A stretch of 64,000 bases of DNA from Desulfobacteraceae bacterium. Its GTDB lineage: Bacteria > Desulfobacterota > Desulfobacteria > Desulfobacterales > JAABSP01. The stretch is from the NCBI GenBank assembly GCA_011390345.1, contig JAABSP010000008.1:21277-85276 (forward strand), written 5' to 3'. The notes under the pieces are model-generated. The model was not told where the DNA came from. It did no database searches and saw nothing but the letters and a program-made list of their open reading frames with translations. Made by a program: the position numbers and the translations under genes. This document shows, in pieces, positions 1,926-61,813 of the stretch; positions within the stretch are counted from its first letter, which is position 1, and each line of letters begins with the position of its first letter.

Positions 1926-4900
1926 TTACGCCGATTTCCGGTTGAGATCGGAGAGGATGATTTCGGAGACCTTCTCAGCGGACTGGCCGAAGAGTTCGTC
2001 TACGGGAACCATCTCCAGATATTGATCCTCCCAGGGAATGCTCGATTCGAGTACCAGATCCTTGATGTGCTGGTATTTACCGCCCAGTGCCTTGATCCTG
2101 GTGGAGAGGGGAACCTCCTCCTTGAACTCGATGTGGAGCAGCATCAGATGCTCGATGGTGTTGGGAGTCTCCGACGCCTCAGAGAGGATCGGGATATAGA
2201 CGATGCTGCGCTGATCCTTTCGGCCTTTGCCGATGTAGACATTTTCCTGCCGGACGATGATCAGCTTCGTTCCCTGAAGCTTGTGATCCTTCTCCACCCG
2301 GGAGGCCATGCCGGCTGAAGATCCCTCTTTTGTAAGCACCTCCACTGCGGTCTTTTCCGTCGGTTCTCCCAGAAGATCGAGGCCCCTCACCTGATAGAGG
2401 GTGAGCCCCTTGACCGTCTCGATGATCCCCTGGAGGTTTTTGACGACGATCAGATTGCTCGGAGTGAGCTGAGAGATGGAAAATCCCTTCTCCTCCAGCA
2501 GATTGAAGAGAACGCCCTCGAACTTCTCGCTGATCCGGCTCGTGCCTACGGTGACGGTCTTGGCCTGGTGCTTGATCGCATCCACGGGCCGGGCCATCGC
2601 GTTGACCCCTGTGCTGAGGCAGGCAAAGAGGGTGTTGATCATGTTCTGTGCGGTCCCCTTCATCCCGAAATCGAGTTCGAAATCGGTCACCGGAAGTCTT
2701 CCCGCGAGATATTTGAGCAGCAGGGTCAGGTCCGAGAAGATATCGAGCGCATCCGGGAGCTGGTGATCTGTCCTCTTCTTTCGGAAGACGGCATAAAATC
2801 GGGCCATCTTCTCCCGGAAGGGCTTCTCCAGTACCACTTCATAGATCCCCATTCCCGATTCCTCATAGCTTTGCAGATCGGACCGGATCTCCTGGCGGAA
2901 TTCATAGAGAAACCGCGATCCGTCGTTGATGGCAAGCGCGGAGTAGTAGCCCCAGATATGGCCCGCCAGGGTGTTGACGATCGGCGCAAGGTGCTCGGGG
3001 ATTGCCGGTACATGGAAGACGGCCGCGGCATGGGAGTCGAAGCGATCCTCGCCCTCATCCGCGATCACGATGGGGACGGCCTTGTGCGCCTTGAAGATGG
3101 CCGTGTCCTTGACGATGTCTCCGATCACCGTGGGACGGGTTCCGGCCGCGCAGACGATGATCAGCGGTTCCGAGGAGAGGTCGATGTGCTTCTTGTCCTC
3201 CACATAGTCCGAAGAGATAGTCTTGTAGCAGAGTTCGCTCAACTTGATCCGGATCTCATCGGCCGAGGCCTTGTTGGGACCGCTGCCGACCGCGGCCCAG
3301 TAGGTGCGGGTGATGGCGTGCTGCTTTGCCGCTTTCTCGATCTGCGGAGCCAGGGTCAGTACTTTGCGCATCTGTGCGGGAAGTGCCAGGAGCTGCTTGA
3401 CCTCGCGTGCCACAGCTTCATCGTTTCTGGTTCCCTTCAGGCTCGTGAGAAATAGCCCAAGCAGGGCCCCGGCCACGATCTGGGAGTAGAAGGCCTTGGT
3501 GGAGGCTACCGACATCTCGATGTCCCGGCCGCTGCTGGTGTAGAGAACTCCGTCAGCTTTGAAGGTCAAATCCGAATCCCGGCGGTTGACGATGCCGATG
3601 GTCTTCGCGCCCCGCTCTTTGGCCATATCAACGGCCCGGTTGGTGTCGGTGGTGGTTCCGGACTGGCTGATGGCCACCACCAGAGCATCCTCCATGGAAC
3701 ACATGTCCCTGTCGGCCCCCAGCTTGAAGCCGCTCAGCTCCGACGCCTTCATGGCCGAGATGACCAGAGACGGATCGTTCAAGTAATGGGTGAAGATGTC
3801 CGCACAGGCCTGGGATGCGACTCCCGCGGTCCCCTGTCCCACAAAGAAGATCCGCCGGATTTTTCCAGACGAAATGGCCTCTTTGAGATGGGCTGACACC
3901 ACACTCTCGTTCAGACTGACAACGTACCGATGGGTTCCGTCTTCAGCTTTGGCCACCTTCCATCGGTTCAAAAGCGTCTTCTCCACCGAGTCCGGGGCTT
4001 CGGAGATCTCCTTTAGAAAGTAGTGCTCGAACTCCTGGCGGTCGATATCCCGGGAGGTTAGTTCTGTGGCGCGGATGTTCTCTTCGGTCAATTCCAGGGG
4101 CGTGCCGTCGTAATACATGGCCGTGATGCCTGCAAGTCCGCCTTCGGAATTCTGGTCCAGGATGAAAAGCTGACCCTGGGTCTTCCCGCTTTTGCCCTGA
4201 ACCACCTTCTCTCCGTCCAGCTTTAAGAAGCGGTTCGTCTCCTCGATGAAGCCGTAGACTTCGGATGCGGGGAGATAATGGTCATCGGCAAGGCCGATGA
4301 AAAGGGCCTGACCGCTGCCCCGCTGGGCCAGAAAGAGTCTGCCCGGGGCCAGGTCGGTCTGCATCGCGATGGCATGGGAGCCGTCGAAATCGTTCAAGGC
4401 CATCCGGAATGCCTCTTCCACTGCAAAGCCCTGGCGCAGGTAGGTCTCCACCTGCAGGGGGATGATCTTGGTGTCGGTGGTAATCTCTTCGTGGATTCGA
4501 TCCCCATCCCGCTCGAACTCCCGCTTCAGATCCCCATAGTTGTCGATATCTCCGTTCAGGCAGACATGGATGATCGCATCCTCGCTTCGGGCCGTTTCCG
4601 CATTCGGGCCCCGGATCACCCGGCTGTCCACCGGGTGGCAGTTGGGCTCGCTGATGGCCCCAACCGATGCCCAGCGGGTGTGGGAGAGAACCGTATAATT
4701 GCGGTAGGGGAGACCGGCGATTGTGTGCAGCAGGTCATCGCTTCGGATCTGCTCCCGGAGAAACGCGATGTTGTCGCCCAGACTGCCCACCTCGGCCGAG
4801 ACCTTGTAGGTGAGGCTGATCACGATCCGGTTTTTTCCTTCAATGGTGATCTCATGCAGAGAGATCCCACGGTTGAGGAGCATCGGATTGCCGAGCCGGG

Positions 4901-5570
4901 CATCGAATGCCTCCTGGGCCATGTTCGCTTTGACCGAGGCTTTAAACCCCTCGAGATCCGATTCCTCGAGAACGAAGAGCAGCGAGATCCCGGCCGAATC
5001 CCTGCCCCGGACCTCCAGCCGGTCGATGCTGTTGAAGACCGCGTTGATCTTCTGGAAGACCCGGAGGCTTTCCAGGGTCACATCCTTCTCCCCCTCCTCC
5101 GGAAGATCCATCAGATCCCGCACCCGTCGGATGTTCTCCGAGATCTCCCTGTCCAGACACCAGGCAATGTCCTTGACCGTGTCGATGGCCCGGGTCATGC
5201 TCTCCACCTGGGAGGGTTCAAGATGTCCCACATGGTCCGCAAAGAGCTTCTCTTCGTTTTTCAGAAAATCAAAAAGCCCATCGCGCATTTCCCGGATCTT
5301 CCCATGAATCTCCGGATGGTTAAATATGGTGTAAAAGGGAACTTCCTTCCTTAAATTCCGTGCCATCTCCCAGAGGGAGGAGACGGTCTTCTCGCCCCCG
5401 AGATAGCCGTCATGGGCATTGCCATCCTTTCGGTCCGAGCGGGTGTAGCCGGTCGTGAGGATTTTTCGGGCCAGATCGTTCATTCGAGAGAGATCGGCCC
5501 GAAAGGCATCTTCGGAAAGGAAATTGCTTTTATGGATATTGACGGGAGTGATCCCTGTCAGTCCGCACAT
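1926..5570 (-). CDS. Giant GlmS-like protein: class-II (Ntn) glutamine amidotransferase + 2 SIS domains + extra C-terminal region; function unassigned
   Basis: 1214-aa ORF starting MCG (Cys2 is the Ntn nucleophile). RLEVRGRDSAGISL and SHTRWASVGAISEPNCHPV match GlmS GATase blocks. SIS blocks are FFVGQGTAGVASQ...AISQSGTTTDT and AAVGSGPNKASADEIRIKLSE. An internal RPVDAIKHQAKTVTVG resembles the GlmS C-terminal tail. The protein is about twice the canonical GlmS length. Confidence 0.75.
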   Translation of the reverse strand: MCGLTGITPVNIHKSNFLSEDAFRADLSRMNDLARKILTTGYTRSDRKDGNAHDGYLGGEKTVSSLWEMARNLRKEVPFYTIFNHPEIHGKIREMRDGLFDFLKNEEKLFADHVGHLEPSQVESMTRAIDTVKDIAWCLDREISENIRRVRDLMDLPEEGEKDVTLESLRVFQKINAVFNSIDRLEVRGRDSAGISLLFVLEESDLEGFKASVKANMAQEAFDARLGNPMLLNRGISLHEITIEGKNRIVISLTYKVSAEVGSLGDNIAFLREQIRSDDLLHTIAGLPYRNYTVLSHTRWASVGAISEPNCHPVDSRVIRGPNAETARSEDAIIHVCLNGDIDNYGDLKREFERDGDRIHEEITTDTKIIPLQVETYLRQGFAVEEAFRMALNDFDGSHAIAMQTDLAPGRLFLAQRGSGQALFIGLADDHYLPASEVYGFIEETNRFLKLDGEKVVQGKSGKTQGQLFILDQNSEGGLAGITAMYYDGTPLELTEENIRATELTSRDIDRQEFEHYFLKEISEAPDSVEKTLLNRWKVAKAEDGTHRYVVSLNESVVSAHLKEAISSGKIRRIFFVGQGTAGVASQACADIFTHYLNDPSLVISAMKASELSGFKLGADRDMCSMEDALVVAISQSGTTTDTNRAVDMAKERGAKTIGIVNRRDSDLTFKADGVLYTSSGRDIEMSVASTKAFYSQIVAGALLGLFLTSLKGTRNDEAVAREVKQLLALPAQMRKVLTLAPQIEKAAKQHAITRTYWAAVGSGPNKASADEIRIKLSELCYKTISSDYVEDKKHIDLSSEPLIIVCAAGTRPTVIGDIVKDTAIFKAHKAVPIVIADEGEDRFDSHAAAVFHVPAIPEHLAPIVNTLAGHIWGYYSALAINDGSRFLYEFRQEIRSDLQSYEESGMGIYEVVLEKPFREKMARFYAVFRKKRTDHQLPDALDIFSDLTLLLKYLAGRLPVTDFELDFGMKGTAQNMINTLFACLSTGVNAMARPVDAIKHQAKTVTVGTSRISEKFEGVLFNLLEEKGFSISQLTPSNLIVVKNLQGIIETVKGLTLYQVRGLDLLGEPTEKTAVEVLTKEGSSAGMASRVEKDHKLQGTKLIIVRQENVYIGKGRKDQRSIVYIPILSEASETPNTIEHLMLLHIEFKEEVPLSTRIKALGGKYQHIKDLVLESSIPWEDQYLEMVPVDELFGQSAEKVSEIILSDLNRKSA

Positions 5571-14277: not shown

Positions 14278-14359
14278 GGATTAAACTTGAACCGAGATCA
14301 AATTTAAAGTATAAAGCTCAATTCAGGCGCAATTGTCAAGGTGTACTCTTAAAAAAATT

Positions 14360-15217
14360 ATGGCGACAATCCTTCTGACAAATGATGACGGCATCCATGC
14401 CGAGGGGCTCTGGGCTCTCTACGGACGTTTTTTCAAAAGCCACGGGGTGGTTGTGGTGGCCCCGGACCGGGAGCGGAGCGCAGTGGGCCACGGCATCACC
14501 CTGCACCAGCCTTTAAGAACCCACAGGGTACGGGTCTGGGGAGGATATGAGGGGTATGCGGTGGACGGAACACCGGCCGACTGTGTCAAGATCGGCATCC
14601 TGGAGGTGCTCGGGAAAAAGCCCGATGCCGTGATCTCCGGCATCAATCCGGGTGCGAACGTGGGGGTGAGCATCAACTACTCCGGAACCGTCTCCGCGGC
14701 CCGGGAGGCGGCCCTCTACGGCATCCCCTCCGTTGCAGTATCTGTCAACGCCTCTGATGTCCACAGCTTCGAGCCGGCCGCATCTGTTGCCGAAAAGATC
14801 CTCTGCCAGATCCTGGACAGGGGGCTGCCCTTCGGAACCCTGCTCAATGTCAATGTCCCGGATCTGCCGATGGAAAAGATCAACGGCTTCCGGATCAGCC
14901 GCCAGGGGGTCTCGGTGCTAACCGAATATTTCGAAAAACGGGTCGATCCCCGAAACCGCTCCTATCATTGGCTCGGCGGTGACACCCAGCGGTTTGAAGG
15001 TGATGGGGAGATCGACTGGACAGCGCTCTACCAGGGGTATGTCAGCATCACGCCGATCCGGTGTGATATGACCGATTACCAGATGCTGGAGAAGATGGCA
15101 GAATGGGAGTTCAACTGCCGTTCCCCGAAAGAAGACCCGGAAGAAGACCCGGAAGAAGATCGGGAAGAAGATCGGGAAGAAGACTCCGAAGAAAATCGGG
15201 GAAAAGACCCAAAATGA
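14360..15217 (+). CDS. surE: 5'/3'-nucleotidase SurE with acidic repeat tail
   Basis: Starts MATILLTNDDGIHAEGL and contains GINPGANVG...YSGTVSAAREAA. The ATG at 14360 is preferred over the TTG at 14333. Confidence 0.93.
   Translation: MATILLTNDDGIHAEGLWALYGRFFKSHGVVVVAPDRERSAVGHGITLHQPLRTHRVRVWGGYEGYAVDGTPADCVKIGILEVLGKKPDAVISGINPGANVGVSINYSGTVSAAREAALYGIPSVAVSVNASDVHSFEPAASVAEKILCQILDRGLPFGTLLNVNVPDLPMEKINGFRISRQGVSVLTEYFEKRVDPRNRSYHWLGGDTQRFEGDGEIDWTALYQGYVSITPIRCDMTDYQMLEKMAEWEFNCRSPKEDPEEDPEEDREEDREEDSEENRGKDPK
15131..15202 (+). repeat. Six tandem 12-nt units inside the 3' end of surE
   Basis: The units are gaagacccggaa x2, gaagatcgggaa x2, gaagactccgaa and gaaaatcgggga. They encode EDPE-EDPE-EDRE-EDRE-EDSE-ENRG. 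Confidence 0.9.
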
Positions 15218-15259
15218 AGATCGGGAAAAGGATCTATAAAAGATGAAAAGCCGGAACCG

Positions 15260-16306
15260 ATGAAAAAGCAGTTTGTCGATACCATAAAGGCCGGAGATTC
15301 GGTGGAGGATGTCTTTGTCCTCTACGAGTGTTCCGTTGCCACCAAAAAGGATGGCAACCCCTTTCTCAATATTACGCTGTCAGACAGAACCGGCCGGATC
15401 AAGGGCGTGATCTGGGAGAATGCGGATCAGCTTTCTTCTGTTCTGGCCGCGGCCGATTTTGTGCGGATCAACGGCAGCGCCTCCCAATATATGGGAAATC
15501 TTCAGTTGACGATCCGGCAGGTGGAGATCACGACCCCTGAGGGCATCGACGCCGCGGATTTTATCCCGGCCACCACCCGCAACATCGACGCGATGTTCGA
15601 GAAGCTGGTGGAACTTGTCCGGAATAAAATGAAAAATCCGCATCTGCTGGGGCTGATGGATGCCTTCTTTGCCGATGAAAAATTTGTCCGGGGATTCAAG
15701 ATCGCGCCGGCCGCAAAGAAGATGCACCATGCCTACCTCGGGGGGCTGCTGGAGCATACCCTCTCCATGGCGATTCTAGTGGAACGGCTGGGGGGGCATT
15801 ATTCGGGCATCGATATGGATATGCTGCTGGCCGGCGCGGTTCTTCACGACATCGGCAAGATCCGGGAGTTCGACTACAGTTGCCGGATCGACTATTCTGA
15901 CGAGGGGCGGTTTCTGAGCCATATCCTCATCGGCTGTGAGATGATCGCTGAGAAGATCCGAAAACTGCCCGATTTTCCCGAGGAGCTTTCCCTGCTGGTG
16001 AAACACATGGTAGTGAGCCACCACGGCACAAGGGAGTTCGGCTCTCCGGAATTGCCCAAGACCATCGAGGCGGTACTCTTGAACCATATCGACGATATCG
16101 ATGCCAAAATGAACGGTATCCGGGATTTCATCGCCAAAAAAGGATTGCATCGCTCCTGGACTTCTTATCATAATATGTATGGCCGCCATTTTTACCGGGG
16201 AAGAGACGGAGAGAGCCCGGAACCGATGCCGCAGAATGGAGAAGAACCGGCCGAGGCCGGTTGGCCAGATGGAGAAGAATATAATCAAGATAAGAGCGGT
16301 ATCTGA
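15260..16306 (+). CDS. OB-fold + HD-domain phosphohydrolase (YhaM-like 3'-5' exoribonuclease family)
   Basis: N-terminal OB-fold-like region followed by HD blocks HHAYLGGLLEHT, LHDIGK and VVSHHG. Confidence 0.75.
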   Translation: MKKQFVDTIKAGDSVEDVFVLYECSVATKKDGNPFLNITLSDRTGRIKGVIWENADQLSSVLAAADFVRINGSASQYMGNLQLTIRQVEITTPEGIDAADFIPATTRNIDAMFEKLVELVRNKMKNPHLLGLMDAFFADEKFVRGFKIAPAAKKMHHAYLGGLLEHTLSMAILVERLGGHYSGIDMDMLLAGAVLHDIGKIREFDYSCRIDYSDEGRFLSHILIGCEMIAEKIRKLPDFPEELSLLVKHMVVSHHGTREFGSPELPKTIEAVLLNHIDDIDAKMNGIRDFIAKKGLHRSWTSYHNMYGRHFYRGRDGESPEPMPQNGEEPAEAGWPDGEEYNQDKSGI

Positions 16307-16392
16307 AGGTGGATAGAGGCCGTATAATAGACCTCCGGCCATTGGGGGGTGAAGATCATCAAGAGAAGAGCGTTATCTAAAGGGGCCTTTTC

Positions 16393-17040
16393 ATGTTTAT
16401 CACATTCGAAGGAATAGAGGGCTCCGGAAAGACCACCCGGATGCGGGAGGCGGGCCGTTTTCTGCAAAGCAGGGGGTATGAACTTCTCCTCACCCGGGAG
16501 CCTGGCGGAACAGCCTTGGGAGAACGGATTCGCGCGATCCTTCTCTCGCCTGAGCAGAAGGGCATGGACCCGACGGCTGAGCTTCTCCTCTACATGGCGG
16601 ACCGGGCCGATCATGTGAACACCCTCATCCGGCCGGCCCTAGCGAAAAAAAAGGTGGTTCTCTGCGACCGGTATTTCGACGCCACCCTCGCGTATCAGGG
16701 ATATGCCCGGGGCCTCGATATCGAACTCCTCAGAGCCTTTCACCGGACCGCGTTGAATGATTTCATGCCCGATCTTACTTTTCTTCTCGACCTCCCCCCG
16801 GAGATCGGCCTCTCCAGGGCATTGGGAGATCGGAGCCGATCCGACGCGGAAAGCCGGTTCGAGCAGGAGGCCCTCGATTTTCACGCCCGGGTCCGGGCCG
16901 GGTATCTCTCGCTTGCCGATGAAGATCCGGAGCGTTTCATCCGCATCGATGCCGCAGCCGCGCCCGAGTCTGTGGACCGGCAGATCCGCTCGGCGTTGGA
17001 AGAACGTTTTCCGGAACAGGATCGAAATCCGCAGAAGTAA
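16393..17040 (+). CDS. tmk: Thymidylate kinase
   Basis: Starts MFITFEGIEGSGKTT (P-loop) and contains LLTREPGGT and the DRY motif (CDRYFDATLAYQG). Confidence 0.95.
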   Translation: MFITFEGIEGSGKTTRMREAGRFLQSRGYELLLTREPGGTALGERIRAILLSPEQKGMDPTAELLLYMADRADHVNTLIRPALAKKKVVLCDRYFDATLAYQGYARGLDIELLRAFHRTALNDFMPDLTFLLDLPPEIGLSRALGDRSRSDAESRFEQEALDFHARVRAGYLSLADEDPERFIRIDAAAAPESVDRQIRSALEERFPEQDRNPQK

Positions 17041-17090
17041 AGCAAACGAAAGAGGAGGCAGAAGATCTCTGCCTCGAACAGGAAACCGAT

Positions 17091-19391
17091 ATGGGATATT
17101 CAATACTGGATGCCATCGGCAACACGCCCATGGTCGAGATCGTCAAGCTCAATCCGAACCCCCGGGTCCGGATACTGGCCAAGCTCGAATACTTCAACCC
17201 GGGCGGCTCCATCAAGGATCGGGCGGCTCTCTCCATGATCGAGGCCGGAGAGCGTTCCGGTGAGCTGACCCCCGACAGAACCGTGATCGAGGCCACCTCC
17301 GGCAACACCGGCATCGGCCTTGCCCTGGTCTGCTCCGTCAAGGGGTACCGGCTGCTGCTGGCCATGTCCGAGGCCGCGAGCATCGAGCGGCAGAAAATTT
17401 TAAAGGCGCGGGGGGCAGAGATCCTGCTGACGCCGGGCCATCTGGGAACCGACGGCGCGATCGAGGAGGTCTACCGGCTTGCGCGGGAAAACCCGGATGC
17501 CTATTTCATGGCCGATCAGTATAATAACCCGGCCAACTGGGAGGCCCACTACAGCGGGACCGCACAGGAGATCTGGGAGCAGACAAACGGGGAGGTCACT
17601 GTCGTTGTGGCAACGATGGGAACCACCGGAACCCTCATGGGGATCTCCCGCCGGATGAAGGAGTACAGCCCGAAGATCGAAATCATCGGTGTGGAGCCGT
17701 ATCTGGGTCATAAGATCCAGGGCCTGAAGAACATGAAGGAGGCCTACTGCCCCGAACTCTATGAAAAGGCGCGCCTCGACGAGAAGGTCAACATCGATGA
17801 TGAAGAGGCCTTTGAGATGACCCGCCGGTTGGCCCGGGAGGAGGGCCTTTTTGTGGGGATGAGCAGCGGCGCGGCCCTGGTCATCGCGGCCCAAAAGGCC
17901 GCATCAATGAAGGAGGGGACCATTGTCGTCATCTTCCCGGACAGCGGGGAGCGGTATCTGAGTACCTCTCTTTTTGCCGTAAAGGAGAAGGTCGATCTCA
18001 ATCTCTTCAACACCATGAGCCGCGACAAGGAGACATTTCAGCCCCTGATTCCGGGAAAAGTATCTCTTTATTCCTGCGGCCCTACGGCCGATGCCCGGCT
18101 TCATGCCGGAGAGTACCGGCGCTTCATCTTCTCGGATCTGCTCTGCCGGTATCTCGGTTTCCGGGGGTATGAGGTCAAACAGATCATGAACATCACCGAT
18201 CTGGACGACCGAACCATCAACGGCTCCGAAGAGAAGGGCGTGGAACTGACCGAGTTTACCGAGAAAAATATTGCGGATTTTCAAAGGGATCTCAAAACCC
18301 TCGGCATTCAGCCGGCCGCGGCCTATCCCAGGACCAGCGAGCATGTGGACGACATGGTCGCGGTCGCGGAGAAGCTCGTCAAAAAGGGTGTGGCCTACGA
18401 GAAGCTGCGCTCCTTATATTTCGACATCTCCCGGTTTTCCGACTACGGAAAGCTCTCCGGCGTGGATCTGAACAAGATCCGGCTCGGCGCGACCGTTGAT
18501 CTGGACGAATACGAGAAGGACAACCCCCGAGATTTCACCCTCCTGAAGCGCTCCCGCCTCTCGGAATTGAAGCGGGGCATCTACGTCAAGACCGAGTGGG
18601 GAAATGTCCGCCCCTCATGGCATCTCCAGTGCGCGGCCATCTCCATGAAGTATCTGGGGGAGATCTATGACATCCACACCAGCGGAAGAGAACTCGTATT
18701 TCCCCACCATGAAAACGAGATCGCGATCGCGTCGGCCCTAACCGGAAAGCCTCTGGCCCGATACTGGCTCCATTGCGACCGGGTGCTGGTGGAGGGGAAG
18801 AAGCTGGATGACCACGGCTGGTCCGTGACCATCGATGATCTGACGGAGATGGGTTACACCGGCAAGGAGATCCGCTTCTGGCTCCTTTCGGCCCATTACC
18901 GGAAGCCGGTGATCTTCTCCACGGACCGGCTCGATGCGGCCAGCCGCTCTCTGCAACGCCTGAACGCATGCATCCAGGCGCTGATCAATGTGAAAAACGG
19001 AAAGACCAGAGTATCCCCCGATCCCTTTCCGGAGCTGGATCAACTCCTGTATGACATCAAAAACGGCTTCATCAGCGCGATGGACGATGATTTGAACATC
19101 TCGGCCGCGCTGGCCGCGCTCTTCGGCAATGTCAAACGGATCAACAAGCTGGCCCTGGAAGGCCGTTTCAGCCAGAAGGATGCGGAGAAGATCCTGGAGT
19201 CCTTTTCCGGCATCGATTCTGTGCTGAACGTGCTCGACTTTACCGATTCTCTGGAAGATCCGAAGATCCGGGAGCTGATCCGGCAGCGGGAGGCGGCCAG
19301 AGCCGAAAATAACTGGGCCATCGCGGACCGGATTCGGGAGGAACTGCTCGAAAAGGGCGTCACGGTCCGGGATCGGAAGACGAACGGATAA
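17091..19391 (+). CDS. Fusion protein: cysteine synthase (CysK/CysM, PLP fold type II) + cysteinyl-tRNA-synthetase-like module with degenerate HIGH/KMSKS
   Basis: The N-terminal ~300 aa carry NPGGSIKDR (PLP Lys), TSGNTG and GTTGT. The C-terminal ~460 aa are collinear with CysRS (LYSCGPT, NITDLDD, WHLQCAAIS, DIHTSGRELVFPHHENEIA, AMDDDLN). The HIGH position reads LHAGEY and the KMSKS position reads GKKLD. Confidence 0.85.
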   Translation: MGYSILDAIGNTPMVEIVKLNPNPRVRILAKLEYFNPGGSIKDRAALSMIEAGERSGELTPDRTVIEATSGNTGIGLALVCSVKGYRLLLAMSEAASIERQKILKARGAEILLTPGHLGTDGAIEEVYRLARENPDAYFMADQYNNPANWEAHYSGTAQEIWEQTNGEVTVVVATMGTTGTLMGISRRMKEYSPKIEIIGVEPYLGHKIQGLKNMKEAYCPELYEKARLDEKVNIDDEEAFEMTRRLAREEGLFVGMSSGAALVIAAQKAASMKEGTIVVIFPDSGERYLSTSLFAVKEKVDLNLFNTMSRDKETFQPLIPGKVSLYSCGPTADARLHAGEYRRFIFSDLLCRYLGFRGYEVKQIMNITDLDDRTINGSEEKGVELTEFTEKNIADFQRDLKTLGIQPAAAYPRTSEHVDDMVAVAEKLVKKGVAYEKLRSLYFDISRFSDYGKLSGVDLNKIRLGATVDLDEYEKDNPRDFTLLKRSRLSELKRGIYVKTEWGNVRPSWHLQCAAISMKYLGEIYDIHTSGRELVFPHHENEIAIASALTGKPLARYWLHCDRVLVEGKKLDDHGWSVTIDDLTEMGYTGKEIRFWLLSAHYRKPVIFSTDRLDAASRSLQRLNACIQALINVKNGKTRVSPDPFPELDQLLYDIKNGFISAMDDDLNISAALAALFGNVKRINKLALEGRFSQKDAEKILESFSGIDSVLNVLDFTDSLEDPKIRELIRQREAARAENNWAIADRIREELLEKGVTVRDRKTNG

Positions 19392-19413: not shown

Positions 19414-20400
19414 ATGAAAGGACAGATTAGGATGAACCCTCTATATTTCCCCTTCACCCATATGACGGCGCCGGTTGCGGCCGCGTTTGCCCGCTGTTTT
19501 GAAAAGATTTTGATCTATGGGCCGATCTCTTTGGAATCAAGGCCCGATCCAGCCCCTTCTGACGCTGTTTCGGAAAAGGTGGATATCGATCTCCGCATCC
19601 CGGTTCAGGGGGACGAGGAGAAGCTTCTTCAGCAATTGAATTCCTATGTTGCCTGGGCCGATCTTCACGGCGGTGCGCTCTCACATTTCAAGGGAAGAGG
19701 AGGCGAGATCCCTTTCTATGATGAGAATACTTTGAGCCGAATCCGCTCGGAAATCAAAGGGATGAATCGGGAGATGGATCGGGAGAAGGGGCCGAAGCCG
19801 GACCCGCTCTTTACCGCGAGGATTTTTCTGCTGATGGCCGAACGGTTCGACCGGCAACAGGGAGAGCTTGAGGCCGGGCTGTCGGATTACGAAGGGATGC
19901 AGAAACAGTTGATGAAGGCCCTCAAAAGCGATGATTTCGAGGAGCAGAGCGACCCAATCCTTCCCTGGGGAGAGGACTTGGGGATCTATGCCACCCGGAG
20001 CCGGATCGAAGCCTGGGCCCAATTGGCCCAAAAAGAGAAGGAGATCCCGTCCCTCTGGATCACCCAAAGCCGCGCGGCCTTCGAGCAGATGATCGATGAT
20101 CTGCCCGAAGGCGAGACGGTTGCAGAGATCGAGGGGATACCGCTGATCGAACCGCCGGATCTCTTTGGATGGCGGGAGGCCCTCCAGGGGTTTCTGGAGG
20201 CGGCGCTGACCCAGGGTCCCGCTACAGCGGCCCCCTCGCCACCGGAAGGTGCGGGAAAAAGGATGCTCCGCCTGCGACTCCACCGGATCAGCGGGACAGG
20301 GCCGATGGAGGCCCTTACCCGGTTGAGCGGCGCCCAAAAGGAAGAATCCGAGGCCGGTGAAGAGAATCTGCTGATCGGTCTCCTGGAGCCTGTTCTATAA
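19414..20400 (+). CDS. Hypothetical protein (no recognisable domain)
   Basis: 328-aa ORF starting 22 nt after the CysK-CysRS-like gene, on the same strand and with coding-like composition. The start could instead be the MNPLYF ATG 18 nt downstream. Confidence 0.55.
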   Translation: MKGQIRMNPLYFPFTHMTAPVAAAFARCFEKILIYGPISLESRPDPAPSDAVSEKVDIDLRIPVQGDEEKLLQQLNSYVAWADLHGGALSHFKGRGGEIPFYDENTLSRIRSEIKGMNREMDREKGPKPDPLFTARIFLLMAERFDRQQGELEAGLSDYEGMQKQLMKALKSDDFEEQSDPILPWGEDLGIYATRSRIEAWAQLAQKEKEIPSLWITQSRAAFEQMIDDLPEGETVAEIEGIPLIEPPDLFGWREALQGFLEAALTQGPATAAPSPPEGAGKRMLRLRLHRISGTGPMEALTRLSGAQKEESEAGEENLLIGLLEPVL

Positions 20401-20583: not shown

Positions 20584-20772
20584 ATGGCATTTATCCCTTC
20601 AGTAGATGAAGAAAAATGTGCGGGCTGCGAAGAGTGTGTGGATGTCTGTCCGGTGGAGGTATTCGAGATGCAGGACGGCAAATCCGTGCCGGTGAACGCT
20701 GAGGAGTGTCTCGGATGCGAGAGCTGCATCGAGGTGTGCGAGGAAGACGCCATCACCGTCGAGGAGACCTGA
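20584..20772 (+). CDS. 2x[4Fe-4S] ferredoxin
   Basis: 62 aa with two CxxCxxCxxxC(P/E) motifs (CAGCEECVDVCP and CLGCESCIEVCE). An AGGAGA RBS lies upstream. Confidence 0.9.
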   Translation: MAFIPSVDEEKCAGCEECVDVCPVEVFEMQDGKSVPVNAEECLGCESCIEVCEEDAITVEET

Positions 20773-47942: not shown

Positions 47943-50900
47943 ATGAAGGTATTGGGTATTTGCATCGGCGCATCGACCATTTCAACCGTACAACTGGAAA
48001 CCCCGCAGCCCTGGATTGCAGGAGCCGAACCCTCCGCAGAGGGTAGGCCCCGGGTGATCCGCCATTCCCTCCATCCCCACGGCGGCGATCCCCGGCAGAC
48101 CCTGAGCGACGCACTTGCGGAGATCAACCCGGATCAGTTCGACCGGATCGCGGTCACGGGCCGGCGGTTCCGCCATTTTGTCAACCTCTCCCAGATCTCC
48201 GAGCCCGAGGCCGTGGAGTATGCCTACCGCCATGTGAAGCCCGAAGGGGTGGACTGCCCGGCAGTGATCTCGGCCGGCGGGGAAACCTTCATGGCCTATG
48301 TCCTCAATGGTGCGGGGCAGATTGCAAACGTGCTTACCGGAAACAAGTGCGCATCCGGAACCGGAGAGTTCTTTCTCCAGCAGCTCCGGCGCCTCAACGT
48401 GCCGGTGGAGGCTGTGGGGGAGCTTGCGGATACCGATTCGCCCTACCGGCTTTCTGGCCGCTGCTCGGTCTTCTGCAAGTCGGACTGCACCCATGCCACC
48501 AACAAAGGGGTTCCCATCGAGCGGGTCACCGCGGGCCTCTGCCGGATGATGTCCAACAAGATTTTAGAGCTGTTGAAGAATGTGGAGAAGCGAAATGTCA
48601 TGATCACCGGCGGCACGGTGCGCAACCCGGTGATGGTCCGCTATCTCGAAGAAGAGATCCCGGGGCTGATCGTTCCCGCGGAGGCGCCCTATTTCGAGGC
48701 ACTCGGGGCAGCGCTCTGGGCTCTCACCAACGAGACCCGGCCATTTACCTCGGACGACAGCGCAAAACTCTTCCTGCCGGACGCTGCCACCTTCGACACT
48801 CTGCCCCGCCTCTCCGACTTCGAGGACGCGGTCGCGTTCAAGGATATCGCAAAAGGGGAGGTCGCAGAGGGAGACGTCTGCATCCTGGGGCTCGACGTCG
48901 GCTCCACTACCACAAAGGCCGTGCTGATGCGAACGGAAGAGAGTGCGATCCTCGCGTCGGTCTATCTCAAGACCAACGGCAACCCGGTGGGGGCATCCCG
49001 GGAGTGCTACCGGAGCATCCTCGATAAGGTGAAGGAGAAGATCGATCCGGAGAAGATCGAAATCATCGGGCTGGGGGTCTGCGGATCGGGCCGGCAGATC
49101 GCGGGGCTCCACGGGCTCACCGACGGCGTGATCAACGAGATCATCGCGCACGCGGCCGCAGCAGTCTATTTTGATCCCGAGGTGGATACGATTTTGGAGA
49201 TCGGGGGGCAGGATGCCAAATATACCTACATCACCAATGGGGTTCCGTCGGACTATGCCATGAACGAGGCCTGTTCGGCCGGCACGGGCTCCTTTCTGGA
49301 GGAGTCGGCCCTGGAGACTCTGGGAATTCCCATGGAGGGGATCGCGGAGATCGCAGTCAAAGGGGAGCGTCCTCCCAACTTCAACGATCAGTGCGCGGCC
49401 TTCATCTCCTCGGACATCAAGACCGCCATCCATGACGGGGTTCGCCAGAACGACGTGGTGGCAGGATTGGTCTACTCCATATCCATGAACTACTGCAACC
49501 GGGTCAAGGGCAACCGTCCCGTGGGGGAGAAGATCTTCATGCAGGGCGGGGTCTGCTACAACCGGGCCGTTCCCCTGGCCATGGCCTCCATCCTCGGAAA
49601 GCCCATTGTGGTGCCGCCGGAGCCGGGGCTGATGGGCGCGTTCGGGGTGGCACTCGAAGTGGAGAAGCGGATCGACGCGGGGCTGATGGAGGCCGGACGC
49701 TTCGACCTGCAGACCCTGATCGACCGGGATGTGAAGTACGGGAAATCCTTTACCTGCAAGGGCGGAAAGGAGCGGTGCGACCGCCACTGCGAGATCGCGG
49801 CCATCGACCTGGAGGGGAAGAAGTACCCCTTTGGCGGCGCATGCAACCGATATTACAACCTCCGCCGGAACATCCGGTACGACATCATCAAGCTCGATCT
49901 GGTGGGGGCCCGGCAGCGGATCATCTTCGAAGCGGAGGCGGAAAAGCCGGAAAGCCTACCGGAAAACCTTTCGGAAAGCCTTCCGGAGAAGGATCAGCGG
50001 CCCCGGATCGGCTTCAACCGGAGCTTTCTGGTCAACACCTACTTCCCCCTCTATGCGACCTTCTTCTCGGAGATCGGCTTTGAACCGGTGATTCCGGACG
50101 AGCCTTCCGAAGCGGGCATTGACCGGCGAAACGCGCCTTTTTGCTTTCCCGCGGAGCTGGCCCACGGCTTTTTCCATGCACTGATCGCAGAAGAGAGCCC
50201 GCCCGAGTATCTCTTCCTGCCCCATTTCAAGGCGGTTCCCACCCAGATTGAAGATTGCAACGCACAGGTCTGTCCTCTTGTGCAGGGGGAGACCTTCTAT
50301 CTCAAGACCACCTTCAAGGCGGAACTGGACCGGTTAAAAGAGGAGGGGACTGGGGTGATCTCGCCCCTCATCGATCTGACAAAGGGGCTTCACACGATCC
50401 GAAAGCCCCTGGTTTCGGCTGCGGCAGAGATGGGGGTGGATGCCCAAAAGGCCAATGCCGCGGTCGATAAGGCCATAGCCGCGCAGGCCGAGGCTGTCGA
50501 ACGGATGAAGAGGATGGGAAAAGAGGCGCTGGCAGAGCTTGAGGCCGATCCGGAGCGGATCGCGGCCGTGATTTTTGCCCGGCCTTACAGCGGCTTTGCC
50601 GAGGAGGCCCACATGGGCATCCCGAGAAAGCTCGCCTCCCGGGGGGTGATGGTGATCCCCATGGATTTCCTTCCCTATGAAGAGGAGCCCCTCATGGGCC
50701 ACATGTACTGGGGCCTGGGCCAGACCATCATGAAGGCCGCGGCCCTGGCCGAGCGCCATCCCCAGCTCTTCGGGGTCTATATCACAAACTTCTCCTGCGG
50801 CCCCGACTCATTTATAATCACCTATTTCAGAAACCTGATGGGCAGAAAGCCGGCCCTGACTCTGGAGCTGGACAGCCATACCGCGGACGCGGGGCTGGAG

Positions 50901-52340
50901 ACGAGAATCGAGGCATTTCTGGATGTGGTTGCCGCATACCGGCAGCAGCAGGCCGCAGACCGGCTTCCCCCGGTCCGGGAGAACGGTTTTGTTCCGGCAG
51001 AGACGGTTCGGGAAGATGGCAGAATCAAGGTGATCGCCTCCTCCGGTGAGAAACTGGCCTTTACGGATCCGCGGGTAGTCTTTCTCACCCCCTCTATGGG
51101 CCGCTATTCGACCGAGGCCATCACTACAGTTTTCCGTGCGGAAGGGATCAATGCTGTGCATCTGGCCCCTGCGGACGAGGCCGTGCTGAAGCTGGGCCGG
51201 GCCAACACCACCTGCAAGGAGTGCCTCCCGCTACAGCTCACCACAGGCGGGCTTCTCGATTTCATCCGGAACCGGAAAAAGCCGGATGAGGTGCTGGTAT
51301 ATTTCATGGCCACGGCCTCGGGCCCCTGCCGCTTCGGCCAGTACTCGATCTTCATGCAGGAGCTGATCAAGCGACACCAGATCCCGGATGTGGCCTTCTT
51401 CTCTTTAAGCGGCGAAGACTCCTATTCCGGGATGAGCGGCGCGTTCGAGCGGCGGGCCTGGTGGGCCGTCCTTCTGTCGGATGCGATGGAGGACATGCGC
51501 GCGATGCTGCTGGCCAATGCTGTCGATCCGGGTGGCGCTGTTTCGCTTCTGGACCAGGAGTGGGAGGAGATCCTCTTCGGCATTCAGTATGGTGGCTTTG
51601 AGGAGATCTCGGCCATTGCCAGGAAATCCTCGGCCCGCCTGAAGGAGATTCCTCTGAGCCGGCCCGTGGACGCGGTTCCCAAGGTTGCGCTCACCGGAGA
51701 GATCTATGTGAGAAGAGATGGCCTTTCCCGACAGTATCTCACGGAAAAGCTTGCGGAGAAGGGGTTTGCAGTGACCTGCTCCCCCATCGCGGAGTGGGTG
51801 CTCTACTGCGATTATCTCTACTACAACGGGATCTGCGGGGGGAAGGTCACGCCTTTGAAGGCGCTCAAAGGCATTTTGAAAAAGCGGTATATGTCCAGAA
51901 GCGAGCGGCGGCTGAAGTCGATTCTGGCCGAATCGGGATTGATCGATTTCCATCCCGTGGATATTGAAAAGATCATCCGAAATGCCAGCCCGGACATCGG
52001 CGTGAATCTGACAGGGGAGGCGGTGCTGACGGTGGGTGCATCCCTTGCGGAGATCGCAACAGATGTCTGCGGCGTGATCGCTATCGGCCCTTTTGGCTGT
52101 ATGCCCAACCGGCTGTCGGAATCGATTCTGGCAACCTCGATGGTTAAGGAGCGGAAACTCTCCACCGATCCCGGGGATGATCGGCTTCGCGCCACCCTGA
52201 CCCATTTCGACGATTTGCCCTTTTTCGCCATCGAGACCGACGGATCGCCCTTTCCGCAACTGGTCAACGCGAAGCTGGAGACCTTCTGCCTCAGGGCCGA
52301 GCGGCTTCACCGGCAGATGCTCGGCGCCCAGAGGAACTAG
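47943..52340 (+). CDS. Fused double BcrA/BadF/HgdC-type ATPase ('activase') + DUF2229/HgdB-like domains (CoA-substrate-specific enzyme activase family)
   Basis: 1465 aa. There are two acetate/sugar-kinase-fold modules (VLGICIGASTIS...CASGTGEFF and ILGLDVGSTTTKAV...CSAGTGSFLE). A ~900-aa region typical of the long YjiL/YjiM-like fusions follows. Confidence 0.88.
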   Translation: MKVLGICIGASTISTVQLETPQPWIAGAEPSAEGRPRVIRHSLHPHGGDPRQTLSDALAEINPDQFDRIAVTGRRFRHFVNLSQISEPEAVEYAYRHVKPEGVDCPAVISAGGETFMAYVLNGAGQIANVLTGNKCASGTGEFFLQQLRRLNVPVEAVGELADTDSPYRLSGRCSVFCKSDCTHATNKGVPIERVTAGLCRMMSNKILELLKNVEKRNVMITGGTVRNPVMVRYLEEEIPGLIVPAEAPYFEALGAALWALTNETRPFTSDDSAKLFLPDAATFDTLPRLSDFEDAVAFKDIAKGEVAEGDVCILGLDVGSTTTKAVLMRTEESAILASVYLKTNGNPVGASRECYRSILDKVKEKIDPEKIEIIGLGVCGSGRQIAGLHGLTDGVINEIIAHAAAAVYFDPEVDTILEIGGQDAKYTYITNGVPSDYAMNEACSAGTGSFLEESALETLGIPMEGIAEIAVKGERPPNFNDQCAAFISSDIKTAIHDGVRQNDVVAGLVYSISMNYCNRVKGNRPVGEKIFMQGGVCYNRAVPLAMASILGKPIVVPPEPGLMGAFGVALEVEKRIDAGLMEAGRFDLQTLIDRDVKYGKSFTCKGGKERCDRHCEIAAIDLEGKKYPFGGACNRYYNLRRNIRYDIIKLDLVGARQRIIFEAEAEKPESLPENLSESLPEKDQRPRIGFNRSFLVNTYFPLYATFFSEIGFEPVIPDEPSEAGIDRRNAPFCFPAELAHGFFHALIAEESPPEYLFLPHFKAVPTQIEDCNAQVCPLVQGETFYLKTTFKAELDRLKEEGTGVISPLIDLTKGLHTIRKPLVSAAAEMGVDAQKANAAVDKAIAAQAEAVERMKRMGKEALAELEADPERIAAVIFARPYSGFAEEAHMGIPRKLASRGVMVIPMDFLPYEEEPLMGHMYWGLGQTIMKAAALAERHPQLFGVYITNFSCGPDSFIITYFRNLMGRKPALTLELDSHTADAGLETRIEAFLDVVAAYRQQQAADRLPPVRENGFVPAETVREDGRIKVIASSGEKLAFTDPRVVFLTPSMGRYSTEAITTVFRAEGINAVHLAPADEAVLKLGRANTTCKECLPLQLTTGGLLDFIRNRKKPDEVLVYFMATASGPCRFGQYSIFMQELIKRHQIPDVAFFSLSGEDSYSGMSGAFERRAWWAVLLSDAMEDMRAMLLANAVDPGGAVSLLDQEWEEILFGIQYGGFEEISAIARKSSARLKEIPLSRPVDAVPKVALTGEIYVRRDGLSRQYLTEKLAEKGFAVTCSPIAEWVLYCDYLYYNGICGGKVTPLKALKGILKKRYMSRSERRLKSILAESGLIDFHPVDIEKIIRNASPDIGVNLTGEAVLTVGASLAEIATDVCGVIAIGPFGCMPNRLSESILATSMVKERKLSTDPGDDRLRATLTHFDDLPFFAIETDGSPFPQLVNAKLETFCLRAERLHRQMLGAQRN

Positions 52341-60896: not shown

Positions 60897-60925
60897 AAAA
60901 AAACCCTTTTTTGCCGTTCCTTTGA

Positions 60926-61813
60926 TTATGAAAAGATGGAGGAAAAGTCCCGATAAAAATCCTGTGATTCCGGAATTGCCCCCTGTATCCTGCAGATTTT
61001 GCTGGCGAACCGGGTGGCGGTCTCCAGCGTCTTTTTCGGGGGCCACCCCTTTAGAATTCCGATGGCCAGAACCGAGGTAAATGCGTCGCCCGCGCCCACC
61101 GTATCCACAATCTTCAGATCCTTTTCCGGCTCGGCCTCGACCCTCTCGCTTTCCGTATAGAGGCGGCTGCCGGCCCCGCCAAGGGTGAGACAGATCATTT
61201 CGATGGGATAATTTCCAAAAAGATGTTCGATAAACGCGTCATCCCCGCGGCCAAAGGAGAGCAGCCCACGAATGGCCGGCAGCTCCTCATCGTTGAGCTT
61301 GAGGATATGGCACTGGTCCAGGGAGGCTTCGACGATCTTGCGGTTATAGCAATCGGGCCGCAGGTTGACATCGTAGAGGGTCCGGGTCTTCTCCCCCCGA
61401 TCTGCCAGCATCTTCTGGACGTTTTGGAATCCGTGATCGGTTCGCTGGATCAATGTGCCGTAATATATGAGATCAGCCCGGGAAAGCATCGGGGAGAGAT
61501 CCGGGGAGTAAGTGATGTGATCATAGGCCACATCCCGGACGATGTCGAAGGATGCGCTGCCGTCGGGCTTTACGGTCACGATCACTTCGCCGGTTTTGTG
61601 ATCCTCATCCATCTGGATGTACTCTGCGTCGAATCCATTCGCCTTTAAAAATGAGAGGATCTCCTCTCCGTTGCTCTCCTTGCCCACGCGGCTGATAAAT
61701 CGGGTTTCAAACCCAAGCGCATGGGTATGGAAGGCAAAATTGAAGGGGGCCCCGCCCATCCGTTTTCCATTCGGAAACCGATCAAAGAGGATTTCTCCGA
61801 TGGATACGATCAT
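60926..61813 (-). CDS. Fructokinase (PfkB family)
   Basis: MIVSIGEILFDRFPNGKRMGGAPFNFAFH... and DTVGAGDAFTS. It lies directly upstream of the sucrose synthase gene. Confidence 0.88.
   Translation of the reverse strand: MIVSIGEILFDRFPNGKRMGGAPFNFAFHTHALGFETRFISRVGKESNGEEILSFLKANGFDAEYIQMDEDHKTGEVIVTVKPDGSASFDIVRDVAYDHITYSPDLSPMLSRADLIYYGTLIQRTDHGFQNVQKMLADRGEKTRTLYDVNLRPDCYNRKIVEASLDQCHILKLNDEELPAIRGLLSFGRGDDAFIEHLFGNYPIEMICLTLGGAGSRLYTESERVEAEPEKDLKIVDTVGAGDAFTSVLAIGILKGWPPKKTLETATRFASKICRIQGAIPESQDFYRDFSSIFS

Follow-up and report, generated by a model that had tools for sequence, protein, structure and literature searches.

We analysed a window of 64,000 nucleotides from the genome of a Desulfobacteraceae bacterium (contig JAABSP010000008.1, positions 21,277–85,276) and found that positions 17091–19391 of this window encode a 766-residue protein in which a cysteine synthase is fused to a body that derives from cysteinyl-tRNA synthetase (CysRS) and whose ATP site is dismantled (coordinates are those of the window, on the + strand unless stated). 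The pockets for zinc and cysteine and the contacts for the tRNA anticodon are retained, the fully degenerate fusions have a single evolutionary origin, and their gene is linked to that of an orphan protein. We favour, at slightly less than even confidence for the interpretation as a whole, that the CysRS-like half does not aminoacylate and is kept as a tRNA-Cys/cysteine-binding module coupled to the synthase.

Architecture of the fusion protein

The open reading frame (ORF) begins with ATG and runs uninterrupted, and no other long ORF lies at this position. Residues 1–296 (17091–17978) form a CysK/CysM-type O-acetylserine sulfhydrylase (OASS) domain (Pfam PALP at residues 5–284, 5e-74). A linker of about 8 residues (approximately residues 297–303, AVKEKVD; 17979–17999) leads to the first CysRS strand, LNLFNT. 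The CysRS-like catalytic body (residues 316–617; 18036–18941; tRNA-synt_1e, 1e-77) comprises the Rossmann fold, the connective peptide (CP) insertion and the stem-contact fold, and is followed by a DALR_2 helical-bundle domain (residues 660–715; 19068–19235; Pfam), with AMDDDLN at residue 663, and by a CysS_C anticodon-binding domain (residues 724–764; 19260–19382; Pfam) whose final segment is lost. This half is colinear over its full length with solved CysRS structures (phmmer, 6.9e-96 for 8qhp, the closest solved relative, and 1.6e-75 for E. coli 1li5). The original prediction, made from the letters of the DNA, of one 766-residue ORF that joins an intact CysK/CysM domain to a full-length CysRS-like body agrees with both Pfam and NCBIfam, and the motifs that it quoted (GGSIKDR, TSGNTG, GTTGT, SCG, WHLQCAA, FPHHENEIA and AMDDDLN) are all present where it placed them.

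Two independent Logan assemblies contain this ORF unchanged, and the NCBI metagenome-assembled genome (MAG) GCA_011390135.1 carries a version that is 99% identical. The identical ORF in independent assemblies excludes a stop or frameshift between two ordinary genes, a possibility that had been raised with the prediction; together with at least 120 protein clusters of the same architecture, it also rules out an assembly artefact or a chimera.

By its motifs, the N-terminal half is a complete and predicted-active OASS. It passes the NCBIfam cysKM model TIGR01136 (361.8 versus a cut-off of 344.15), its closest matches in the Protein Data Bank (PDB) are OASS enzymes (5e-76), and all pyridoxal phosphate (PLP) and substrate-binding motifs of CysK/CysM enzymes are intact: PLP Lys42 (within GGSIKDR, at residue 38), the Asn loop TSGNTG (69–74), Q143, GTTGT (177–181) and S258/S259. 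Lys42, TSGNTG, Q143, the GTxGT loop and S258/S259 are invariant across 31 homologues. The domain differs from stand-alone CysK and CysM in its 460-residue C-terminal extension and in missing both equivalog cut-offs (cysM, 349.1 < 394.2; cysK, 312.5 < 350.95). The C-terminal half passes the NCBIfam cysS model TIGR00435 (EC 6.1.1.16) with 359.1 bits against a cut-off of 340, and annotation pipelines consequently label the fusion cysS.

Loss of the ATP site in the CysRS-like half

Alignment places E. coli CysRS CGITVYDLCHIGHGRTF against CGPTADARLHAGEYRRF of the fusion, and VDREKMSKSLGNF against VEGKKLDDHGWSV. In alignments to both 1li5 and 8qhp, the HIGH signature (E. coli H37–H40) is replaced by HAGE (residues 338–341; 18102–18113), which retains the first His and the Gly, and KMSKS (E. 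coli K266–S270) is replaced by KLDDH (residues 571–575; 18801–18815). A third element, GGxD (E. coli G226–D229), reads SGRE (18681–18692) ahead of HHENE. Canonical relatives of this CysRS subtype carry HIGN instead of HIGH. The colinear alignments with PDB chains revealed no intact HIGH or KMSKS elsewhere in the 766 residues, and the predicted loss of both signatures was upheld.

We compared alignment columns among four sets, namely E. coli CysRS, canonical CysRS (69 sequences of diverse phyla, obtained by a genome scan), 120 fusion-clade sequences and, as a separate set, representatives from an exhaustive search. The canonical set has 113 positions with conservation of at least 85%, of which the clade retains 83 and substitutes 30. 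The substitutions at the ATP site include V32A, Y33H, Glu at position 40, G226S, G227S, D229E, M267V, S268D, K269E, S270Q, G272A and N273G; those elsewhere include E208Q (100%), G204S, Q241I and, in the CP domain, R168T, W184L and W194T. None of the 120 clade members carries H-x-G-H/N, the HIGH site being H-x-G-E or more diverged, and position 40 is Glu in 93% of them and Asn in 94% of the canonical enzymes. G226S (96%) and D229E (97%) are similarly widespread. The KMSKS site follows a KK[VL]D[ED][QH]-like pattern, with K269 changed to Glu in 88% of the clade and to Asp in the window protein, and the loop is variable among divergent clade members. Most clade members thereby have acidic residues at positions 40, 268 and 269. 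The window protein also lacks approximately the last 10 residues of its C-terminal domain, which correspond to the DTxxGxxW segment.

Clade members share 84% identity in the Rossmann/CP core and 85% in the CysK half, so the two regions are equally well conserved, and between the same genome pairs the fusion is 69–74% identical, versus 54–60% for SurE, YhaM and Tmk. Judged from these comparisons, the pattern is one of selective loss of ATP handling with strong purifying selection on the remainder and not of simple decay, as had been argued from the single sequence. It is quite probable that the CysRS-like half is dead for aminoacylation. The C-terminal 460 residues would then be a pseudo-synthetase that is unable to activate cysteine with ATP and, for this reason, charges no tRNA.

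Retention of the zinc/cysteine pocket and the anticodon contacts

The zinc ligands of E. coli CysRS all have counterparts in the window protein. C28 and the adjacent G29 correspond to C329 and G330 (18075–18080; SCG at residue 328), H234 and E238 to H539 and E543 in HHENE (18705–18719), within FPHHENEIA (starting at residue 537), and W205, H206 and C209 to W510, H511 and C514 in SWHLQC (18615–18632), where WHLQCAA begins at residue 510. The same segment carries the clade-specific changes G204S and E208Q, the latter placing Gln next to zinc ligand C209. Of the cysteine-contact residues, T68 has its counterpart in T369 and W205 in W510, and D348, D349 and N351 are retained in AMDDDLN. Across the clade, the zinc ligands are retained in 100% (C28), 98% (C209), 100% (H234) and 88% (E238) of members, and T68 and W205 in 100%; G29, H206, R290, Y298, R299, D348, D349, N351, R423 and A426 are also kept. 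At the level of motifs, the PLP lysine, TSGNTG, WH[IL]QC, FPHHENEIA and AMDDDLN are conserved across the 120.

A 2026 study based on structure 1U0B identified R427, W432, D436 and R439 as anticodon contacts of E. coli CysRS (PMC13449415). Their equivalents in the fusion are R737, W742, D746 and R749, and they are retained in 120/120, 118/120, 120/120 and 120/120 clade members, respectively, as well as in every one of the eight divergent degenerate members and 11 intermediate fusions compared. The combination of family-wide ATP-site substitutions and nearly invariant anticodon contacts bears out the earlier proposal that ATP handling was lost while the cysteine pocket and the tRNA-binding parts were retained. 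The pseudo-synthetase would bind tRNA-Cys by way of the anticodon-recognition site, which is intact, and most members would bind zinc and cysteine as well; it would be this persistent binding that keeps it under strong selection.

One alternative is that the CysRS-like half is a ligand-free structural relic, retained for folding, solubility or oligomerization of the synthase. The stepwise erosion of the catalytic motifs, which in some lineages extends to zinc-pocket residues, and the variable KMSKS loop are consistent with such a relic. A scaffold, however, would not hold four anticodon contacts invariant across clade, divergent and intermediate members, nor is it in keeping with a core that is 84% identical or with the 47 of 94 canonical near-invariant positions that are kept in all eight divergent members, and we regard this explanation as unlikely.

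The replaced residues could point to another alternative, in which the former active site performs new ATP-independent chemistry or uses a pre-activated substrate, for example by employing a zinc-bound thiolate with an adenylate such as adenosine 5′-phosphosulfate (APS), which is abundant in sulfate reducers, or by ligating cysteine to another acceptor in the manner of the Cys:GlcN-Ins ligase MshC. In the eight divergent members the pocket replacements are fixed (S204 and E229 in 8/8, Q208 in 7/8), and D229E preserves the carboxylate. MshC shares a CysRS-derived body, the zinc/cysteine pocket and a non-translational role with the fusion; it keeps the ATP chemistry and has no anticodon domain, whereas the fusion is reversed on both counts. 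The MshC model TIGR03447 scored 174.5 against a cut-off of 485.1, with a match spanning only residues 299–635, so membership in MshC was rejected; MshC-type ligation also requires the very ATP site that is dismantled here, and the MshC-type ligase suggested in the original prediction finds no support. An anticodon domain would moreover be superfluous for a small-molecule ligase, and no sulfate-activation or similar supporting genes were found among the neighbours of the fusion. New chemistry of this kind therefore seems highly improbable.

Distribution and evolutionary series

Protein searches returned at least 120 clusters of 758–773 residues, 72–100% identical and with the same four-domain architecture. 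Those members of these clusters that are named fall in Desulfobacterales, among them Desulfonema magnum, Desulfococcaceae and numerous MAGs, and carry the annotation 'cysteine--tRNA ligase'. In a neighbour-joining tree the fully degenerate group is monophyletic in 98 of 100 bootstraps and nested within fusions with intermediate motifs, with an unfused gene pair (L011) and the canonical P0155 further out.

The sequences form a gradient that runs from an unfused canonical pair, through KMSRS-type fusions, to the clade of the window and on to members that also lose zinc ligands. At one end, contig CAZLRI010000403.1 of a 'Pseudobdellovibrionaceae' MAG (L011, 183–2429) encodes an unfused cysK (297 residues) and, after a 75-nt spacer, a stand-alone CysRS with canonical motifs (HIGN/GGVD/WHLEC/KMSKS) that already has the CP signature of the fusion clade, DFTLLKRS..ELKRGIY; this pair looks like the pre-fusion state. 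Intermediate fusions from Desulfobulbales-type and other MAGs carry HLGN/SGTD/KMSRS (P0122), HMGL/KMSRS (L007) or, at the KMSKS site, KMSAE or NMSSE (L008, L010 and L012), and neither E208 nor the C-terminal segment has been lost from them. In the clade of the window the motifs read HxGE and SSRE, residue 208 is Gln, KMSKS is gone and the C terminus is shortened. Beyond it, C209 is lost in P0121, P0123 and P0146, W205 and N351 are lost in L006 and P0124, and E238 is lost in 12% of the core clade. Members without the thiolate-binding zinc site, which on these substitutions cannot be CysRS, keep the anticodon residues, and therefore tRNA binding, not catalysis, appears to be what selection maintains.

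The early members of this series bear on whether the window protein is instead a working bifunctional enzyme with an unconventional ATP site, possibly the sole CysRS of its host, that channels newly made cysteine onto tRNA-Cys. A canonical-motif pair and a canonical-motif fusion exist (L011 and P0132), the intermediates carry KMSRS, and certain class I enzymes can work with a non-canonical KMSKS. The window protein itself has an intact zinc pocket and intact anticodon contacts, exceeds the cysS equivalog cut-off, is annotated as cysteine--tRNA ligase and is encoded in a housekeeping operon beside tmk and near metG. Against a working synthetase, three ATP-site elements were replaced together, with acidic residues at positions 40, 268 and 269 in most of the clade, the KMSKS loop varies in divergent members, as expected once its function is lost, the anticodon domain is cut short at its end, and sister lineages are without zinc ligand C209 or E238, or without W205. 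We consider a working CysRS very unlikely.

Other fusions of related genes were encountered. P0132 (768 residues, MFW6014224.1) from a Nanoarchaeota MAG is a CysK–CysRS fusion with canonical HIGN/GGID/KMSKS that lies outside the bacterial clade on the tree; this fusion, from a DPANN archaeon, is an independent one and probably truly bifunctional. P0181 (711 residues, on a 167-kb ENA contig) joins a serine acetyltransferase, recognized by eye from CysE-like hexapeptide repeats at the N terminus, to a canonical CysRS (HIGH, KMSKS), and represents another covalent tie between cysteine synthesis and CysRS.

An orphan protein encoded beside the fusion

The gene that follows the fusion encodes an orphan protein of 322 residues (19432–20400). 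Its ORF opens at 19414; its true start is probably M7 (nucleotide 19432), because gene callers and all homologues indicate this position. The absence of a recognizable domain that had been noted for the 328-residue ORF was confirmed with Pfam and NCBIfam, and the gap to the fusion was revised to about 40 nt from M7 in place of 22 nt. The orphan protein of the window (at 19432–19458) and all its homologues share an invariant N-terminal YFPFT (residues 5–9), with few other invariant polar residues (H79, D140, R191 and T211). An AlphaFold model (pLDDT 77, pTM 0.74) consists of alpha/beta halves linked by long low-confidence helices; a Foldseek search of this model against the PDB gave nothing below E = 0.2, and the top hit, a cyclodipeptide synthase, was non-significant and was not used. 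The family (45 matches, 323–360 residues, all 'hypothetical') is restricted to the lineage of the fusion and evolves fast (24–35% identity).

Twelve distinct, fully degenerate loci have 1 kb or more of sequence downstream. In 11 of them the gene lies directly 3′ of the fusion, the exception being L002, where two opposite-strand genes intervene, and the adjacency holds where upstream synteny is broken (D. magnum and L089). In L084/L085 the partner begins 1–3 nt past the fusion stop. At the intermediate-motif locus L090, a 370-residue homologue (hhalign 99%, E 8e-18) is encoded upstream, with an overlap of 14 nt at the fusion start, so the association outlasts a change in gene order. No homologue was found near any of 70 canonical cysS loci, or at the intermediate locus L007. 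The co-occurrence that the original prediction had asked about holds at all 12 of the degenerate loci, and its suggestion of co-transcription is strongly supported. No + strand terminator-like site lies between surE and the partner gene in the window. The adjacent orphan would work together with the fusion. Two ideas about it were rejected: that it was gained together with full motif loss, which is refuted by the upstream homologue at L090, and that it inserts a C-terminal Ile tail into CysK in the manner of the CysE–CysK complex, as its C termini vary and no CysE-like tail is conserved.

A constantly present partner, usually followed by a ferredoxin gene, could also be read as a sign of tRNA-dependent chemistry, in which the dead CysRS half presents tRNA-Cys, possibly acylated, to the PLP domain or to the partner and ferredoxin, for example for conversion of Sep- or O-acetylseryl-tRNA to Cys-tRNA, in analogy to SepCysS, or for persulfide processing. 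SepRS/SepCysS/SepCysE is a precedent for a complex of this kind, the anticodon contacts are invariant, and the PLP beta-replacement enzyme is tethered by only about 8 residues. The TSGNTG loop binds the carboxylate of the free substrate in OASS enzymes, however, and its invariance, like that of Q143, fits a free amino-acid substrate and makes literal tRNA-dependent cysteine synthesis unlikely. Neither SepRS nor any other mis-acylating enzyme that would load a tRNA-Cys precursor was found in the 64-kb window or the fetched loci, and the ferredoxin is missing in L084/L085. We regard tRNA-dependent chemistry as decidedly unlikely.

Relation to known systems and proposed role

Measured against canonical CysRS (E. 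coli CysS, 1LI5/1U0B; colinear with E values from 7e-96, for 8QHP, to 1.6e-75), the fusion shares the zinc ligands, T68, W205, the DALR bundle and the C-terminal domain with R427/W432/D436/R439; it differs in HAGE, SGRE, KLDDH, E208Q, G204S, the shortened C terminus and the N-terminal cysteine synthase. It is best grouped with a known kind of protein, namely synthetase paralogues that are non-catalytic and joined to the pathway that makes their own amino acid. HisZ, a HisRS paralogue that serves as the regulatory subunit of HisG, is likewise a non-aminoacylating module derived from an aminoacyl-tRNA synthetase, with the amino-acid pocket kept, on the biosynthetic enzyme of its own amino acid. 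HisZ is a class II separate subunit without an anticodon domain, whereas the module of the fusion is class I, covalently attached and equipped with anticodon contacts, its regulatory role being a prediction. The HisRS-like domain of GCN2, the functional analogy that we favour, combines a dead synthetase domain, tRNA binding and control of the fused enzyme. GCN2 is eukaryotic, controls a kinase and responds to many uncharged tRNAs, whereas the fusion is bacterial, involves a metabolic enzyme and carries residues specific for one anticodon. The fusion follows the pattern of these sensor paralogues, with catalytic signatures lost and ligand-binding residues under purifying selection.

The same bacterial order contains a further lineage-specific extra CysRS-type gene, CysRS*, which has no anticodon domain, carries a PTVS CP1 motif, is located downstream of selC*/selB* and presumably aminoacylates (Mukai et al. 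2017, PMC5389517). Membership of the fusion in this group was rejected, given its DALR_2 and CysS_C domains, LGAT at the CP1 position, the lack of a tRNA gene in the window and the lack of selB among annotated genes near the fusion. Short representatives in our set that might have been CysRS* were ruled out as fragments or frameshifted calls. Reviews and surveys give only CysRS* and MshC as CysRS paralogues (PMC5389517, PMC7609411, PMC9437257), a census of more than 2,500 genomes reports frequent CysRS paralogues and does not mention a CysK–CysRS fusion (PMC5388404), and our full-text literature search found no description of a fusion of CysK to a dead CysRS. The family would be a third and larger CysRS paralogue family beside MshC and CysRS*. 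Hundreds of Desulfobacterales entries bear the name 'cysteine--tRNA ligase' despite the dismantled ATP site, and genome-based inventories of translation genes in sulfate-reducing Desulfobacterales are probably wrong for this reason. The series is nearly complete, from neighbouring genes through a fusion that looks active and an ATP-dead one to fusions that have additionally lost zinc ligands, and it lends itself to the study of how synthetases turn into pseudoenzymes.

In the mechanism that we propose, an active PLP-dependent synthase of the OASS type would make cysteine, and the pseudo-synthetase would tie this synthesis to the state of the tRNA-Cys/cysteine pool. It might do so as an allosteric sensor acting on the fused synthase, in the manner of the GCN2 HisRS-like domain or of HisZ/HisG, or by holding tRNA-Cys where cysteine is made. 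The sensor or regulator and the tRNA-linked scaffold of the original prediction thus both stand, and by analogy with GCN2 and HisZ we favour a role in sensing or coupling. A more specific version, conceivable if doubtful, is a protein-level tRNA sensor, in which the dead CysRS reads charged or uncharged tRNA-Cys by its GCA anticodon and, with the partner, toggles the attached synthase. This would amount to GCN2-like logic inside a metabolic enzyme and to a third functional class of CysRS paralogue. Should the tRNA-binding half control the synthase, it would form a direct protein-level link in bacteria from tRNA charging status to amino-acid synthesis.

Several observations weigh against a non-catalytic binding module. 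The zinc pocket is under weaker constraint than the anticodon site (E238 in 88%; C209S and W205L in some lineages), and cysteine sensing is for this reason not a universal role. E229, S204 and Q208, although clade-specific, are themselves conserved and could indicate a new catalytic site rather than a sensor, and the newly acidic active-site pocket might hinder the tRNA 3′ end from entering. An AlphaFold model of the whole fusion (pLDDT 69.5, pTM 0.51, CP domain below 50) is too poor to orient the active sites and lends no structural support to interdomain coupling. The fusion also lies among housekeeping genes (metG, holB and tmk) and passes NCBI's cysS model, both as expected for a real cysS.

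Genomic neighbourhood and other features of the window

Upstream of the fusion, surE, a yhaM-like HD/OB gene and tmk lie on the same strand (14333–17040) and probably form one transcription unit with it. In most relatives, metG, PSP1, holB, HU, a nusG-like gene and lptD occupy one strand, and surE, the yhaM-like gene, tmk, the fusion, the approximately 330-residue gene, a 62-residue ferredoxin and ogt the other; L084/L085 show a 4-nt overlap between tmk and the fusion. The 2×[4Fe-4S] ferredoxin (62 residues; 20584–20772 in the window) is a frequent downstream neighbour that is 68–92% identical among loci, and its absence from L084/L085 weakens its candidacy as an obligate partner. In the 64-kb window, cysE and tRNA genes are absent and there is neither a second cysS nor a second cysK; no second CysRS was detected when 22 fusion-linked loci were scanned with E. 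coli CysRS, and no T-box or riboswitch was found ahead of the fusion gene. The 50-nt spacer between tmk and the fusion contains a perfect 8-bp inverted repeat, GAGGCAGA-AGATC-TCTGCCTC (17055–17075), just upstream of an AGGA Shine–Dalgarno sequence at 17080 and with no T-run after it on the + strand; this hairpin is not general, because tmk overlaps the fusion in L084/L085.

Elsewhere in the window, a full-length cobalamin riboswitch (RF00174; 25185–25415 (+), 104.5 bits, E 4e-25) is the sole Rfam match. A 1,214-residue ORF (1926–5570 (−)) with GATase_6 (residues 293–437) and SIS (572–704) domains is GlmS-like and about twice the usual length, which could reflect either an ORF called too long or a larger fusion. 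A 1,465-residue protein (47943–52340 (+)) combines a BcrAD_BadFG ATPase with DUF2229 and is of the CoA-enzyme activase type. An 851-residue sucrose-synthase-type glycosyltransferase (58491–61046 (−); GT-B_Sucrose_synth, 9e-135; SUS_N, EPBD) is unusual in a Desulfobacterales-type genome.

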